Virus record (IMG/VR): IMGVR_UViG_3300044627_003892
Direction: 5' to 3' (one strand)
Length of the DNA: 64,000 nucleotides
Source of the DNA: a virus
Taxonomy: Duplodnaviria > Caudoviricetes
In this document: piece after piece, positions 9,743 through 64,000 of the stretch
Layout: each line of letters opens with the position of its first letter
How positions within the stretch are numbered: the first letter of the stretch is position 1
The notes under the pieces: generated by a model
Database searches by the model: none
Told to the model about the DNA's origin: nothing
The model's input: the letters and a program-made list of their open reading frames with translations, nothing else
Made by a program: the position numbers and the translations under genes

Positions 9743-9750
9743 TATTTATT
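9743..9750 (+). promoter_or_regulatory. Putative late promoter TATTTATT, 3 nt before ATG 9754
   Basis: One of about 30 copies in sense orientation just upstream of unit starts. Confidence 0.6.
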
Positions 9751-9753
9751 GGT

Positions 9754-10116
9754 ATGACAAAACCCAAAAAAAAACAAATTAATTTTACTAAAGACTCAAT
9801 TCTTGTTTTAATGCAAGAAATTTACAATGAGTTAGTAGAACAACGCTCAACGGCTATTAGAATTCAAAATAAAATGGTTGCCATGATGAAAGAACCTGAA
9901 GACATGACTCTAATTGGACCTGTTATTGAAAAACAACAAAAAATAATAAATGATTGTGTTGAGAAAAAATTACAACTTTCAAAGTTACAATCAGGTATTT
10001 GGGAAAAACAAAGTTCAAAAGAAGAATCATTTGATATTTCAAATATGGATGATGATGTTTTGCAAGGTTTATTAGATAAAGACATAAATTCTGATAATCA
10101 AAAATTTAGTTTATAA
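9754..10116 (+). CDS. Hypothetical coiled-coil protein
   Basis: 120-aa ORF with late motif, coupled to the next gene. Confidence 0.8.
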   Translation: MTKPKKKQINFTKDSILVLMQEIYNELVEQRSTAIRIQNKMVAMMKEPEDMTLIGPVIEKQQKIINDCVEKKLQLSKLQSGIWEKQSSKEESFDISNMDDDVLQGLLDKDINSDNQKFSL

Positions 10117-12038
10117 TGGCAATTAGTATTGACGAAGGGTTTGAACAAAGTAAGAATAAACTTAAAGTTTATAAGACTTTTCTGCAATCAAAATCGGAAA
10201 TTAAAAAACAAAAACTAAAAAACAAACTTGACGAAAAAAAACTTTCAAGACAACAAAAATCTTTAGAAAGGGCTAAAAAAAATCAAGAACGAAAAGAAAG
10301 AGCTCAATCAAGTTATGAACAACTTATTGATATTTTACAAATGGCCAAAGGTGCCGCAAAACCTAAAGATAATTACATTACAAATCTTTTAGTCAAAGTT
10401 ACTAAACAAATTAAACCAAAAATTTCTGAAATAATTTCAGAAGAAATGTTAAAATCTTTAAATTGTTCCGAAGAAAGTACGTTTAACAACCTTGCAATTT
10501 ATATTAAAGTAAGTAGTTTAGATTTAGGTAAAATTTTACTTATAAGTCCTACGGATACATGGGGAAAATGTATTTACGAACAAAATCCTTACGACTATTC
10601 TTCACCAAAAAAATCAACTAACCAACTTTTATATTACCTAATACAAACTCCAACGGCTCTGTCTCAAGGTGGTATTAATGGTATTACTAACCCTGTTAAT
10701 ACTAAGTATAAAGGACAAAGTGGACAGGACCTTTTTGACATACAATTTGTTACCGTAGATAATACCGGTACACCAGGTCAATATTATAAAATTACCTTAT
10801 CAAATAGGGTTTTAGGTTTAAATAGAGTTTCCGATTTTATTAATGATTATTTTAAAACTAATTCATTATTAGATTTACGATATCTACTAACAACTTTAAC
10901 TGACATTATTTTAGGTTGTGTTTCCGCAGATTTAAAACTTGGGGATAATCAATTAGATGACTCAACAAGATTTGGTTTAATCATACAACGAATATTAGGT
11001 CAATGTCAGGATTACAACGTTGAAATTGATGTCGGGGGACAAGCAAAATATCCCGAAGTAGATAATTCAACAGACACTATTTTTGAAATGGAATCTAATG
11101 ATTTAGAGTTTATTAACGAAAGGGTTCAATCAATTAAAGTAGGGATTAGAGAATTTGTTGATTGTAATAATATTGCGTTACCAATATCGGACACAAATTA
11201 TTTATCTAACAATATATCTAACGTTGGTGACGATGGTGAAAATTTAGATAATGAAATAAATAATATTATAACTAATTTAGTTAATGACCCAAGATGGGTT
11301 GCCAATTTTCCATTTCCTGACGCAATATCTTTAAGTTTAAATAAAGATTTTATAAGTCAATTACCTATGGCGATTATAAAATCAATTTTTTCTCCAAAAG
11401 TTTTATTACCATATATTATTATGGCAAAGGCTATTGGTAACATGTACGATGAAGGAATTGAGGGATATAATAATTTTTTAAGAAACAACAGGGCGTTAGT
11501 TCAGGCCATCGGTAGTCGAATAATGGCTTTGTTTTTAGAAGCTCTACTGATTGAGATTAAAAAAATTGTTATAGCATTGGCCAAAGCAATAATACAAGAC
11601 ATGACTGCGGAAAAAAAGGCAACAATTGCTACAGTAATAAATAAGATTGTTTCACTTTCAGTTTTAATTGCTCAAACAATCAATGATTTTCGAGAGTGTA
11701 GGAGTTTAGTTGATTATTTGTTGAAATTATTTCAATTAAGAATTCCTTTACCAAAACAAATTACACCAACACCAATTTTAGCATTATCTGACATATTAGA
11801 TGGTGCGTCGACAAATAGGGCATATATGAATCATTTAGAGTTTTTACAAAGCCTTGGGTTACCAACAGGACCAAATCCTAATGGAACACCAATGTATTCA
11901 AACATGGAAGGATTTTCAATAATGCAAGGTTTAAATAAAGAAAAGGAAGAAAATGGTAAAACAGAAATGTTTATTAAACCAATACCTATAGCGGGATATG
12001 CAACCAGCCCAATTAGAGTTACAGGAAAATACTTTTAA
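10116..12038 (+). CDS. Hypothetical protein, probable tail/baseplate component
   Basis: 640-aa ORF co-transcribed with the baseplate spike gene; no recognisable motif. Confidence 0.45.
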   Translation: MAISIDEGFEQSKNKLKVYKTFLQSKSEIKKQKLKNKLDEKKLSRQQKSLERAKKNQERKERAQSSYEQLIDILQMAKGAAKPKDNYITNLLVKVTKQIKPKISEIISEEMLKSLNCSEESTFNNLAIYIKVSSLDLGKILLISPTDTWGKCIYEQNPYDYSSPKKSTNQLLYYLIQTPTALSQGGINGITNPVNTKYKGQSGQDLFDIQFVTVDNTGTPGQYYKITLSNRVLGLNRVSDFINDYFKTNSLLDLRYLLTTLTDIILGCVSADLKLGDNQLDDSTRFGLIIQRILGQCQDYNVEIDVGGQAKYPEVDNSTDTIFEMESNDLEFINERVQSIKVGIREFVDCNNIALPISDTNYLSNNISNVGDDGENLDNEINNIITNLVNDPRWVANFPFPDAISLSLNKDFISQLPMAIIKSIFSPKVLLPYIIMAKAIGNMYDEGIEGYNNFLRNNRALVQAIGSRIMALFLEALLIEIKKIVIALAKAIIQDMTAEKKATIATVINKIVSLSVLIAQTINDFRECRSLVDYLLKLFQLRIPLPKQITPTPILALSDILDGASTNRAYMNHLEFLQSLGLPTGPNPNGTPMYSNMEGFSIMQGLNKEKEENGKTEMFIKPIPIAGYATSPIRVTGKYF

Positions 12039-12039
12039 T

Positions 12040-12237
12040 ATGGACCCAAAAATATTTAATATAATAAAAGAAAATAAAGATAGACCAAACAGAGATTTGG
12101 AGACCGCAATGAACTATCTAAATGAAGAATTTGAAAAAACTAAAGATTTAATAGTTAAATTATCTAAACATTTAGATAATGTTGAATTTAACTATAATAA
12201 GGTTTTAAAAGAATACGAATCTCGTAAAAAATCATGA
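12040..12237 (+). CDS. Hypothetical protein
   Basis: ATG 12040 one nt after the upstream TAA; MDPKIFNII... Confidence 0.7.
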   Translation: MDPKIFNIIKENKDRPNRDLETAMNYLNEEFEKTKDLIVKLSKHLDNVEFNYNKVLKEYESRKKS

Positions 12238-63185: not shown

Positions 63186-63239
63186 ATTGTTTTTATTTTA
63201 GATTACAAATATAGTGAAAAAATTTAATTATTAGGTTTT

Positions 63240-63587
63240 TTACCAATCAATTCCAGGACCAAATTTCCTTTCATCAATAATATCGTTTATATATAATTCA
63301 ATATTGGGTAACAAATCTTCTATTCTATATTGAATTTCCGCCCTGATATTATCAAAATCATCTCTTAACTGAGTTCTGTAAATATTAATGAGAACTTTTA
63401 TCTTACCTGACATTACAACATCAACAACCTCAATCTTATCAACAGATTCTAATTCGTGCAATTCATCCATTTCACCCATTCCCCATTCTTCAGATTCTTC
63501 CCTTAAACTATCTAATTTAGAATTTATTAATCCTTGAATTAAATTTTTTGTTTTTTCTAATTGTTTTTGGTCTATAATGTACTTCAT
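63240..63587 (-). CDS. Hypothetical late protein
   Basis: 115 aa; late motif 4 nt upstream. Confidence 0.75.
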   Translation of the reverse strand: MKYIIDQKQLEKTKNLIQGLINSKLDSLREESEEWGMGEMDELHELESVDKIEVVDVVMSGKIKVLINIYRTQLRDDFDNIRAEIQYRIEDLLPNIELYINDIIDERKFGPGIDW

Positions 63588-63655
63588 ATATTATAAATAG
63601 TAAAAAACATATAAAAAATATTTTATAATAATTTTGTGTGGTAAATAAAATGTAT

Positions 63656-63663
63656 TATATTTG
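63656..63663 (+). promoter_or_regulatory. Bacteroidetes -7 element TATATTTG, 4 nt before ATG
   Basis: Exact TAnnTTTG. Confidence 0.65.
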
Positions 63664-63667
63664 TCCT

Positions 63668-64000
63668 ATGAAACAACTAATAATCATCATCACTTCTTTA
63701 CTTACATTCTCTGTAACTGCTCAAGATATTGACTACAACAATTTTGATAACAAACGTCTTGAGCGTTTAGTATTTGAAGAATTAAACAAATACCGTGATT
63801 CTTTGGGTGTTGTTGATTTATTGTGGTCAGATGTAATGTATAAAAGTATTACCTGTAAGCAGACTTCAATCCTACAAAAAGGTTCAAGTTTATATCATCC
63901 CGATTTAAAAGTTTTATTTACCGATGAGTTCAGAACTTCATTATCAAAAGAATCTGAAAAACTTACAGGTATTAAGAGTCATAACAATTGTGCACCTAAC
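63668..64000 (+). CDS. Secreted CAP/SCP-like domain protein (partial, runs off window)
   Basis: Signal peptide MKQLIIIITSLLTFSVTA-Q; LVFEELNKYRDSLGVVDLLWS resembles the CAP domain start. Confidence 0.6.
   Translation, partial: MKQLIIIITSLLTFSVTAQDIDYNNFDNKRLERLVFEELNKYRDSLGVVDLLWSDVMYKSITCKQTSILQKGSSLYHPDLKVLFTDEFRTSLSKESEKLTGIKSHNNCAPN

Follow-up and report, generated by a model that had tools for sequence, protein, structure and literature searches.

The DNA of a lake jumbo phage analysed here (a stretch of 64 kb, hereafter the window) appears to carry two types of promoters, and the spacing between their boxes and the start codons is likely to result in leaderless or nearly leaderless mRNAs. 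The first type would be that of the host sigmaA, with a -7 box of the form TAhhTTTG. The second would be specific to the phage and consist of a single box, TATTTAT(A/T), for which a gp55-like phage sigma factor on the host RNA polymerase is the most likely reader. At about 40% of phage-type promoters and about a fifth of host-type ones, transcription would begin on the A of the ATG itself or no more than 1-3 nt from it; with the other phage-type promoters, leaders would be short (about 8-12 nt) and open with a run of A. Judged by box position, about a fifth of the phage genes (~15-22%) are probably leaderless candidates; in Bacteroidota hosts, mRNAs that have no leader or a very short one make up 3.7-5.5% (PMC9723704 among the sources). 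For such phage mRNAs, translation would need no upstream signal and would follow the 5'-terminal-AUG (70S-type) route known for other leaderless mRNAs. Motif statistics, the distribution of spacings and its conservation, and what the sigma factor and bS21 are come directly from the sequences, while the position of transcription starts, the assignment of each box to a sigma factor and the mode of translation are what we infer here.

TATTTAT is an orientation-specific upstream element with two preferred spacings

The window contains 63 copies of TATTTAT, 33 of them sense-oriented and no more than 60 nt before a gene start, and 16 of these lie within 9 nt. For 20 control 7-mers obtained by permuting the letters of the motif, 3-18 of 57-155 copies (4-20%) fall within 60 nt and at most 6 within 9 nt. 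The non-coding 5.6% of the window holds 32 of the 63 copies. When the window was compared with two whole related phage genomes (g1 and g2), 43-52% of TATTTAT copies in the three were sense-oriented within 60 nt before a start, versus 4-28% for 20 composition-matched words, the highest control values being those of words that overlap TATTTAT. TATTTAT is a real, orientation-specific upstream element. Shine-Dalgarno (SD) enrichment was absent, with SD-like words before 2-4% of genes versus a background of 4-6%. Upstream of the box we found no specific hexamer, and T/A-rich positions occur about 7-8 and 13-15 nt 5' of it.

The distance from the box to the start codon is bimodal in the three genomes. 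We counted it from the end of the 7-mer TATTTAT, which adds 1 nt to the values of the first-pass annotation, made with the 8-mer TATTTAT(A/T/C). Distances below a hard floor of 4 nt are all but absent, and peaks at 4-6 nt and 13-17 nt flank a trough at 9-11 nt: the counts are 1, 0, 2 and 0 at 0, 1, 2 and 3 nt, then 27, 30, 22, 12 and 7 at 4 to 8 nt, 3, 2 and 3 at 9 to 11 nt, and 9, 20, 15, 15 and 9 at 13 to 17 nt. Gene calls were our own simple calls based on codon usage, and annotation-free counts agree with them; one such count, over 30 dereplicated head-module loci of the wider clade, showed the same bimodality, while a control word was flat.

The start codon is ATG at 97 of the 104 short-class sites. 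A pyrimidine precedes it at 26 of 27 phage-type and 17 of 18 host-type sites with 4-nt spacing, versus 54% of box-less genes; Y(-1)R(+1) is the usual preference of transcription start sites. Leadered-class sites have A in 82-92% of cases at each of +5 to +8 after the box, a run whose position follows the box and not the ATG (information content 1.2-1.5 vs at most 1.0). In the short class, the A of the ATG falls in the same +5 to +8 window. Spacing is also conserved: 178 g1-g2 orthologue pairs included 23 short-short, 19 mid-mid and 105 none-none pairs and just 3 short-mid switches, with the class kept down to 25-40% protein identity.

Box sites and gene starts in the window

All 17 sites at which the first-pass annotation had placed a promoter motif directly before a start codon were found as described, and the signal turned out to be stronger than first stated. 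Spacings below are given, where there are three, in the order window/g1/g2. On the plus strand, a TATTTAT box stands 4 nt before the ATG of a 120-aa gene just 3' of the sigma gene (9743-9756; 4/4/4), and another 4 nt before ATG 56508 of a 232-aa DUF6878 gene (56497-56510; 4/4/4 at 30% identity). On the minus strand, the box at 29064-29070 precedes the ATG of TerL (27313-29058) by 5 nt (29056-29070; 5/5/4), and the GTG start of a 253-aa gene follows its box by 5 nt (33945-33959), both the GTG and the spacing (5/5/4) being kept in g1 and g2. Further minus-strand boxes lie 5 nt before the ATG of a 502-aa gene (43870-43884), 4 nt before that of an 826-aa gene, where the box shares bases with the upstream gene's stop codon (46368-46381), 6 nt before that of an 83-aa gene (49623-49638; 6/6/20), 7 nt before that of a 127-aa gene (55826-55842; 7/7), 5 nt before that of a 105-aa gene (57518-57532; 5/5/5), 4 nt before that of a PPK2/cell-wall hydrolase fusion (57535-59196; box to start 59194-59207; 4/4/4) and 5 nt before that of a 115-aa gene (63585-63599). 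Two minus-strand boxes were absent from the earlier list, one 8 nt before ATG 61611 of a 193-aa gene (61609-61626) and one 9 nt before ATG 25804 of the portal gene (25802-25820), whose intermediate spacing is 9/8/30 in the three genomes.

Some boxes form palindromes. The plus arm of the palindromic box TATTTATAAATA lies 7 nt before the ATG of a Cys-rich 255-aa gene (39777-39793, plus strand); amino acid conservation of 94% and 35% in two relatives marks this ORF (39791-40558) as a real gene. The minus arm lies 19 nt before ATG 39762 of a divergent gene of the leadered class (39760-39788, minus strand). Another copy of this palindrome fills a 15-nt divergent gap (52370-52390), where ATG 52372 (minus) and ATG 52388 (plus) stand 6 and 7 nt from its arms; the spacings are 6/6/6 and 7/7/7 at 41% and 32% protein identity. 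Another leadered example is a box 19 nt before the ATG of a 476-aa gene upstream of the major capsid gene (21417-21445, minus strand).

The host-type -7 box TATATTTG is found 5 nt before ATG 49678 of a 161-aa gene (49665-49680, plus strand), 4 nt (TCCT) before ATG 55421 (55419-55433, minus strand) and 4 nt (TCCT) before ATG 63668 (63656-63670, plus strand), the last with TTTG about 19 nt 5' of the box. A copy at 41346-41353 lies 12 nt upstream of a tRNA-Arg gene (41259-41353 including the box, minus strand).

Going upstream from the 16 phage-type starts, the first in-frame stop is reached after 2-23 codons, and at none of these sites does an alternative start codon in frame separate that stop from the motif; the sole upstream candidate, a TTG at gene 56508, is itself 5' of the motif. 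At 55421 and 63668, an in-frame ATG 5-6 codons upstream (55436 in the first case) overlaps the box, so the starts of these two genes are ambiguous. That start codons are mis-assigned throughout, the true ones lying downstream behind leaders of ordinary length, is scarcely credible in spite of our home-made gene calls and the alternative ATGs close to 55421 and 63668, given that the next in-frame ATG at phage-type sites is 9-110 codons further on, that 20 of 23 short-short orthologue pairs align from the first residue of both proteins, even at 25-40% identity, and that TerL proteins from 80 loci point to one and the same start codon by their N-terminus, which in most orthologues is MSL(S/T)K.

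The box is likely to act in transcription

Positional and comparative statistics support the earlier view that the motif behaves as a promoter. A TATTTAT box lies exactly 28 nt upstream of the tmRNA gene (38379-38761; 38344-38761 with the box, plus strand), at the same distance in g1 and g2. Terminator-like hairpins are found within 60 nt upstream of the box at 10-19% of sites, versus 1% of random positions. One of them, an intrinsic-terminator hairpin with a T-tract (29091-29115, minus strand), stands directly 5' of the TerL promoter box, and this order of hairpin and box before TerL recurs in many relatives. Palindromic back-to-back pairs of boxes occupy divergent gaps of 15-28 nt. The position of the box before the tmRNA gene and directly after terminators indicates that it works in transcription, not in translation. 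The gene of the major capsid protein, the most abundant late protein, was found to have no TATTTAT box.

One could propose instead that TATTTAT is an mRNA-level element, either AU-rich and ribosome-recruiting (or S1-binding) or a site for a translational regulator or RNase, with transcripts starting far upstream and 4-8 nt being a spacing typical of ribosome binding sites. The short-class spacing is indeed similar to that between SD and AUG, and 30 short-class boxes lie in gaps of at most 40 nt behind a co-directional gene, where read-through RNA would carry them. Moreover, two IMG/VR contigs (RNA- or DNA-derived) have an end immediately past the terminator, 32 nt 5' of the TerL ATG, and include the box; one ends at -1. 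Nevertheless, this explanation seems quite improbable to us. It does not account for a box conserved before a non-coding gene, for boxes that follow terminators or pair up in 15-nt divergent gaps, or for the lack of a box at the major capsid gene; the second class at 13-17 nt, with a tail to 35 nt, is unlike a ribosome binding site, and the A-run is tied to the box and not to the ATG. Furthermore, host sigmaA boxes, which are established promoter elements, abut the ATG likewise, at the exact known distance to the transcription start site (TSS).

As for the reader of the box, a candidate is a phage sigma factor of 245 aa (8989-9726, plus strand) with a sigma region 2/gp55-like N-terminal domain and a weakly sigma4-like C-terminal domain. 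Its AF2 model (pLDDT 90) has T4 gp55 (7d7d_F) as the top structural match in VIA (Z 10.9 over 118 residues); a profile search gave SigA region 2 at E 6e-4 and gp55 at E 0.06, and Pfam Sigma70_r2 was matched by 26 of 69 homologues. Upstream of the sigma gene itself there is no TATTTAT motif. The 120-aa gene that follows it (9754-10116) is by its position a candidate for a gp33-like co-activator.

Box spacing suggests leaderless or nearly leaderless mRNAs

A box that ends 4-8 nt before the start codon makes it probable that the mRNA is leaderless, and the spacing fits the proposal of the first-pass annotation that +1 falls at or next to the AUG of many genes. Host-type boxes agree with it at the exact published distance. 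In g1 and g2, 18 sites with TAhhTTTG lie at exactly 4 nt, while neighbouring bins hold about 1 site each and control patterns give 0; among host-type boxes within 60 nt before the ATG of an ORF, 14% are exactly 4 nt away in these phages, versus 2% in bS21-less phages. TTTG at -33, expected about 19-21 nt 5' of the box, was seen by eye, unscored, at many 4-nt host-type sites and at 63668. In Flavobacterium, transcription begins 4-5 nt past a sigmaA box that spans -12 to -5 (PMC6847099, PMC9723704), so a box at 4 nt would place +1 on the A of the ATG.

It is also conceivable that the box is a promoter whose start lies a few nucleotides before the AUG or varies, giving leaders of 1-6 nt that enter the ordinary 30S pathway for SD-less Bacteroidota mRNAs, with no distinct leaderless mode. 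The short class is broad (4-8 nt), an A at -1, present in 9 of 30 sites with 5-nt spacing, could itself be the start, and the A-run suggests a 4-nt start window (+5 to +8). Because the 4-8 nt spread is wider than the single-nucleotide host-type peak, some sites may carry leaders of 1-4 nt. As a general explanation, however, we consider this unlikely: the abrupt lower limit of 4 nt and the scarcity of sites at 9-11 nt point to two discrete solutions and not to a continuum, host-type boxes keep to a single distance that puts A at +1, and initiation on the A of the ATG would suit the pyrimidine that 96% of 4-nt sites have at -1. Start sites at or next to the AUG are our preferred reading, which we hold to be fairly likely. 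In co-directional clusters without terminators, read-through RNA carries the ORFs internally, and leaderless initiation would thus not be the sole route of their translation. A counter-point is gene 33947, a short-class gene which begins with GTG in three genomes; GUG is poor at leaderless starts in E. coli.

Phage bS21 and a possible takeover of translation

The bS21 gene (23034-23219; 22990-23219 with its upstream box, plus strand; Pfam Ribosomal_S21, 40.1 bits against a cut-off of 27) has a TATTTAT box 37 nt upstream and no SD. The first-pass annotation had suggested that this protein may retune ribosomes for leaderless transcripts. The comparison of phage lineages is compatible with that idea: the abutting-promoter signature occurs in 2 of 2 bS21-encoding lineages and in 0 of 5 bS21-less Flavobacteriia phages (one a 225-kb jumbo phage), albeit in a small sample and with kinship ignored. 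The second lineage is an unrelated bS21-encoding Mahaphage with the same architecture and a different motif. Phage-type bS21 has KKKS versus KPS in hosts, and this variant is common to two unrelated huge-phage lineages.

The mRNAs may, on the other hand, be leaderless for reasons unrelated to bS21, namely genome compaction combined with a weak need for leaders in an SD-less host, and the phage protein may, for example, keep ribosomes bS21-replete or escape the autoregulation of host rpsU. We would give this an even chance. AIYK of phage bS21 aligns with AAYI of chain z in 7jil, so that the equivalent of F. johnsoniae Tyr54 is kept while Ile55 is replaced by Lys; Tyr54 stacks on the 3' tail of 16S rRNA (PMC7797042). 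Retention of this anti-SD-sequestering Tyr speaks against retuning. The phage bS21 gene does without an SD of its own, and host-type early promoters also seem to be leaderless, although bS21 carries a phage-type (late) box. In addition, E. coli ribosomes lacking bS21 reportedly translate leaderless mRNA (Kaberdina et al. 2009), which also counts against retuning. What stands against independence from bS21 is the lineage distribution given above, with the limits stated there.

A functional link between leaderless architecture and phage bS21 is possible, though we rate it as rather unlikely. In a specific version of similarly low probability, these phages would tell their own mRNAs from those of the host by leader length, and phage bS21 would replace host bS21 late in infection, shifting ribosomes to 5'-terminal AUGs or A-rich leaders of about 10 nt and away from host leaders of 25-30 nt. 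If this were true, bS21 and leaderless promoter architecture would constitute one co-evolving takeover module. The broader proposal that promoter, sigma factor, bS21 and tmRNA form a single takeover system is conjectural, its basis being the shared motifs before bS21 (37 nt) and tmRNA (28 nt), a motif that the sigma gene lacks.

Comparison with known systems

The phage-type promoter resembles the T4 late system in having a single short AT-rich box right before late genes, seemingly no conserved -35 element and a small phage-encoded sigma factor. The T4 late promoter TATAAATA spans -13 to -6 (PMC1524935), and TATTTATA, read in the same orientation, equals it at 6 of 8 positions. The T4 consensus itself is not matched, however, as the phage box has a central TT where T4 has AA, and the sigma factor of 245 aa has an extra, weakly sigma4-like C-terminal domain. 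Strict T4 geometry would start transcription inside or after the AUG at sites with 4- or 5-nt spacing, and thus the start should be 1-2 nt nearer the box, or flexible. T4 late mRNAs also have SD-bearing leaders, whereas in this phage the start codon is at the predicted +1.

Host-type boxes fit the consensus TAhhTTTG of Bacteroidota sigmaA promoters (-33 TTTG/-7 TAnnTTTG), and an upstream TTTG seems frequent. In the hosts, however, the median leader is 24-32 nt. The leaderless mRNAs of Actinobacteria, Deinococcus, archaea and phage lambda cI share with the present case a -10-type box at a fixed short distance, no SD and almost exclusive use of AUG; in the part of its description used here, GeneMarkS-2 calls leaderless genes from the same genomic signature (PMC6028130). 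The difference is that here a Bacteroidota phage is concerned and that two distinct promoter types in one genome show the arrangement.

With regard to bS21, the Francisella paralogues offer a parallel, as an alternative bS21 is thought there to alter which mRNAs are translated, at least in the portion of that work considered here (PMC9578407); by contrast, a choice of mRNAs by phage bS21 is in our case only putative. The bS21-encoding freshwater phage clades of Chen et al. 2022 (PMC9723584) belong to the same phage group, come from lake water and have large genomes. In those phages and in this one, bS21 lies on the opposite strand inside the TerL-portal-protease-capsid module. Selection of phage transcripts by bS21 was proposed in that study, which includes no promoter, UTR or leaderless analysis, and the leaderless architecture described here is a candidate for what phage bS21 could select.

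The TATTTAT box is very probably a promoter

The sites listed in the first-pass annotation, at which a phage-type motif (14 sites) or a host-type box (three sites) nearly touches a start codon, were all found in the sequence as described, and two more such sites were found at 61611 and 25804. The 7-mer TATTTAT occurs 63 times on the two strands of the window. The non-coding 5.6% of the window holds 32 of these copies, nearly all of which aim at the downstream gene of the same strand, and 33 of the 63 are followed, in sense orientation and within 60 nt, by a start codon, compared to 3-18 out of 57-155 copies for 20 control words of identical composition. 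Similar placement was observed for 93 of 194 copies in g1 (240,759 bp; aligned blocks of 80-95% nucleotide identity) and 117 of 274 in g2 (293,850 bp; TerL amino acid identity 77%), two whole relatives from IMG/VR.

That the box is a promoter, as the first-pass annotation had proposed, and not a ribosome site agrees with several features of its surroundings. The tmRNA gene (38379-38761) is preceded by the box at a distance of exactly 28 nt in the window, g1 and g2, despite differing flanks. Terminator-like hairpins occur within 60 nt upstream of the box at 19% of short-class sites (box 4-8 nt before the start codon) and 10% of leadered-class sites, versus 1% of random positions, and before TerL (27313-29058 (-)) the order terminator, box, 4-14 nt and ATG is repeated in dozens of relatives. 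Moreover, a perfect palindrome, TATTTATAAATA, serves both genes of divergent pairs only 15-28 nt apart, and the upstream neighbour is divergent for 34 of 96 short-class genes. The major capsid gene (18067-19959 (-)) has no box, and no enrichment of SD-like words was found. We thus consider the promoter reading well supported and the box very probably a promoter.

Both stable RNA genes of the window also have boxes of their own: a phage-type one before the tmRNA gene (38344-38378 (+)) and a host-type one (Bacteroidota sigmaA -7 box, TAhhTTTG) 12 nt upstream of the tRNA-Arg gene (41340-41353 (-)). The tmRNA promoters of both relatives overlap with a host-type box, TATCTTTG, an arrangement suggestive of dual control. 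The stretch from the tmRNA gene to the palindromic promoter holds gene 38791-39762 (-), whose product is 323 aa long in the window, 553 aa in g1 and 526 aa in g2 (39-44% identity); the gene may have been truncated or remodelled in the window phage.

Boxes stand at two preferred distances from the start codon

Spacing, taken as the number of nucleotides separating TATTTAT from the start codon, was pooled over the window, g1 and g2. Distances of 0, 1, 2 and 3 nt were seen at 1, 0, 2 and 0 sites, respectively, distances of 4, 5, 6, 7 and 8 nt at 27, 30, 22, 12 and 7 sites, and distances of 9, 10 and 11 nt at 3, 2 and 3 sites. A second peak follows at 13, 14, 15, 16 and 17 nt (9, 20, 15, 15 and 9 sites), with a thin tail beyond. 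An annotation-free count, in which the first ATG opening at least 60 codons was used as the start, gave the same distribution in all three genomes, and so did 30 dereplicated head-module loci of relatives (TerL identity 71-98%), where the control word was flat. A floor followed by two discrete peaks would be expected if the start codon must lie inside the transcript, if function is retained with a 5'-terminal AUG as well as with a leader of about 10 nt, and if leaders of 3-6 nt perform poorly.

The start codons themselves are well constrained: alignments of orthologues start from residue 1, the stretch from the preceding stop to the box holds no in-frame start codon, and one has to go 9-110 codons into the gene to reach another in-frame ATG. 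The GTG start of gene 33947 is kept in relatives. The starts at 55421 and 63668 are less certain because at each of them an alternative in-frame ATG overlaps the box. These two unrelated genes have in common an identical 15-mer, TATATTTGTCCTATG, made up of box, spacer and start codon (55419-55433 (-) and 63656-63670 (+)), with the in-frame ATG just upstream. For the ClpB-like ATPase, the longest ORF (34254-36362 (+)) has a TTG as its first codon, and a host-type box, TACATTTG, ends 3 nt before it (34243-34256). Since the alignment with the g2 orthologue begins only at residue 16, the true start probably lies further downstream, which would give a leadered mRNA.

If a phage box at 4-8 nt or a host box at 4-5 nt before the start is taken to mark a leaderless candidate, such candidates make up 22% of genes in the window, 19% in g1 and 15% in g2. 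In hosts, median leaders are 24-32 nt long and about 4-5% of mRNAs are leaderless; in F. psychrophilum 5.5% of mRNAs are reported as leaderless, in B. thetaiotaomicron 3.7% of 5' UTRs are shorter than 10 nt, and in F. johnsoniae 13% of leaders measure at most 10 nt. Most short-class genes received no function from Pfam and PHROG annotation, and therefore no functional theme can be assigned to them. One member of the class (57535-59196 (-), spacing 4/4/4 in window, g1 and g2) was confirmed as a fusion of PPK2 (Pfam 237.7 bits) with a Hydrolase_2 cell-wall hydrolase.

Spacing class is conserved between relatives

We compared 178 orthologue pairs of g1 and g2 (reciprocal best matches), of which 23 were short in both genomes, 19 mid in both and 105 without a box in both; only three switched between short and mid. 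In 36 of 52 pairs the two spacings differed by at most 1 nt, and conservation of the class persists at protein identities of 25-40%. For genes of the window, the values in window, g1 and g2 were 6/6/6 at 52372, 7/7/7 at 52388, 4/4/4 at 56508 and at 59196, and 5/5/4 for TerL.

Transcription is predicted to start at or next to the AUG

Three indirect lines agree on where transcripts would start. The first is the distance of the host-type box, which in g1 and g2 shows a sharp peak exactly 4 nt before ATG (18 sites, many with an upstream TTTG), with about one site in each neighbouring bin and none for control patterns. As the box of F. johnsoniae and F. psychrophilum occupies -12 to -5, with the TSS 4-5 nt after it (PMC6847099, PMC9723704), the A of the ATG would be +1 at these sites. 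The second line comes from leadered phage-type promoters, in which A makes up 82-92% of the bases at +5 to +8 past the box (in the window, and genome-wide in g1 and g2). This run, seen for example at 13797-13816, 23941-23924 (-) and 38319-38304 (-) of the window, is anchored to the box and not to the ATG, and may either mark the start window or allow reiterative initiation. In the short class, the A of the ATG itself falls at +5 to +9. The third line is the preceding base: the ATG follows a pyrimidine at 26 of 27 phage-type and 17 of 18 host-type 4-nt sites, versus 54% of box-less genes, and a pyrimidine before the starting A is the usual start-site dinucleotide.

The T4 late promoter box spans -13 to -6 (PMC1524935), and its geometry, strictly applied, predicts a start at +7 after the 7-mer, which coincides with the A maximum. 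At 4- and 5-nt sites this would cut into the AUG, so that the real geometry is either 1-2 nt tighter or the start is flexible. On these positional grounds it is likely that a large set of genes is expressed from leaderless or near-leaderless transcripts.

The ends of IMG/VR contigs, considered as a proxy for RNA ends, were not counted as evidence, because the contigs could be RNA- or DNA-derived. Among 54 mapped ends, mostly random in position (about 0.16 expected at gene starts), one lies 1 nt before the TerL ATG, one falls exactly on the GTG of gene 30428, which is preceded by TATTAAAT and 6 nt, and two share one base just after the TerL terminator.

A possible but rather unlikely role of phage bS21 in the leaderless architecture

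Among ribosomal proteins encoded by phages, bS21 is the most common. In the window (30% G+C) its gene (23034-23219 (+); Pfam 40.1 bits versus a cut-off of 27) lies inside the head module, on the strand opposite to the T4-like head genes, namely those for TerL, the portal (23948-25804 (-)), the prohead protease (21759-22478 (-)) and the major capsid protein; tRNA-Arg and ClpB-like ATPase genes are also present. The same arrangement characterizes the freshwater phage clades with bS21 described by Chen et al. 2022 (PMC9723584), a study in which promoters, UTRs and leaderless mRNAs are not analysed. DNA near-identical to the window occurs in many lake-water metagenomes, and lake metatranscriptomes contain a fraction of about 0.2-0.35 of the words that make up the capsid gene. 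No phage of the isolate collection matched the TerL region in a megablast search.

The phage protein is of the Bacteroidota type and retains the tyrosine which, as Tyr54 of F. johnsoniae bS21, stacks on the 16S 3' tail (PMC7797042). Host rpsU is autoregulated through an SD, of which the phage gene is devoid. The phage protein carries KKKS versus (E/I)KPS in F. johnsoniae and in another solved bS21 (9i5v). Both KKKS and the AIY tyrosine are present in every bS21 of the window clade and in that of an unrelated 635-kb Mahaphage (window 23034-23219; g1 65759-65941; g2 66242-66415; L119:501-662), which suggests a distinct phage bS21 subfamily or phage-phage exchange. Loci without bS21 among the 80 TerL loci may mostly end before reaching the gene.

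The Mahaphage, whose predicted host is Bacteroidetes (PMC7162821), is absent among TerL matches at E 1e-20 or better. Its host-type boxes peak at 4 nt (12 sites in 320 kb). The phage also has its own box, TTAATATATA, and at 34-41 ORFs the distance from the end of this box to the ATG is exactly 4 nt, again preceded by T at -1; the distribution of distances is bimodal here too. We compared five bS21-less Flavobacteriia phages: immuto (160 kb), PTm1 (225 kb), phi4:1, phi38:1 and phi14:2. PF01165 was absent from four of the five, and protein searches for bS21 in immuto gave nothing significant. In all five, only A-rich hexamers were found, with no positional peak. Of the host-box sites, 10 of 168 in these phages lay at 4-5 nt, and phages with bS21 had 43 of 236 at this distance (Fisher p = 3e-4). 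The whole comparison is a lead rather than a result, as two lineages are set against five with no phylogenetic correction and with habitat and genome size as confounders. None of the sequence features of phage bS21 points specifically to leaderless mRNAs, and the proposal of the first-pass annotation that bS21 is linked to the leaderless architecture is in our view possible but rather unlikely.

A candidate sigma factor and comparison with the T4 late system

The box is likely read by the product of ORF 8989-9726, a member of a very large family (1086 clusters at E up to 0.001). Profile searches matched it to SigA region 2 (E 6e-4) and T4 gp55 (E 0.06), 26 of its 69 homologues matched Pfam Sigma70_r2, and its weak PHROGs match is labelled 'late sigma transcription factor'. 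A plain sequence search of PDB found nothing. In a VIA search of its AF2 model (pLDDT 90) among PDB representatives, T4 gp55 came out best (Z 10.9, 118 residues) and many sigma factors ranked behind it. The sigma matches found by Foldseek were all weak (E 0.02-0.4), and the C-terminal domain is only weakly sigma4-like. The gene directly after it (9754-10116 (+), 120 aa) encodes a protein with an acidic C-terminal third and keeps a box spacing of 4 nt in the window, g1 and g2. Its position makes this protein a candidate sigma co-factor, perhaps gp33-like, and its one family match is a weak one, to a PHROG without known function.

A new late-promoter consensus and its likely sigma factor are defined for lake phages of a very abundant group. 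The cultured relative Flavobacterium phage immuto (NC_055915.1, vB_FspM_immuto_2-6A; loci L110-L118) has the same box, with 27 copies before genes versus 2.3 expected, and encodes a sigma factor homologue at 30% identity, which makes it a usable experimental model for the promoter; only 4 of its 39 TATTTAT copies belong to the short class. In Bacteroidota bS21 phages, a promoter abutting the start codon in 15-22% of genes is a concrete and testable feature, and most other late leaders would measure about 10 nt, versus the host median of 24-32 nt.

As to known systems, TATTTATA shares six of eight positions with the T4 late promoter, TATAAATA, in the same orientation. The idea that the motif is only the reverse complement of that promoter was rejected as the main description, the match in its own orientation being already six of eight. 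On the strength of these shared positions we regard the system as working like that of T4 late genes, and place it outside the T4 late system proper, since the consensus differs and the comparison covers the box and the sigma factor. Leaderless mRNAs, gp55-type promoters and bS21 phages have each been known separately; as far as the searched literature shows, the combination of the three, together with the contrast to the host, is new.
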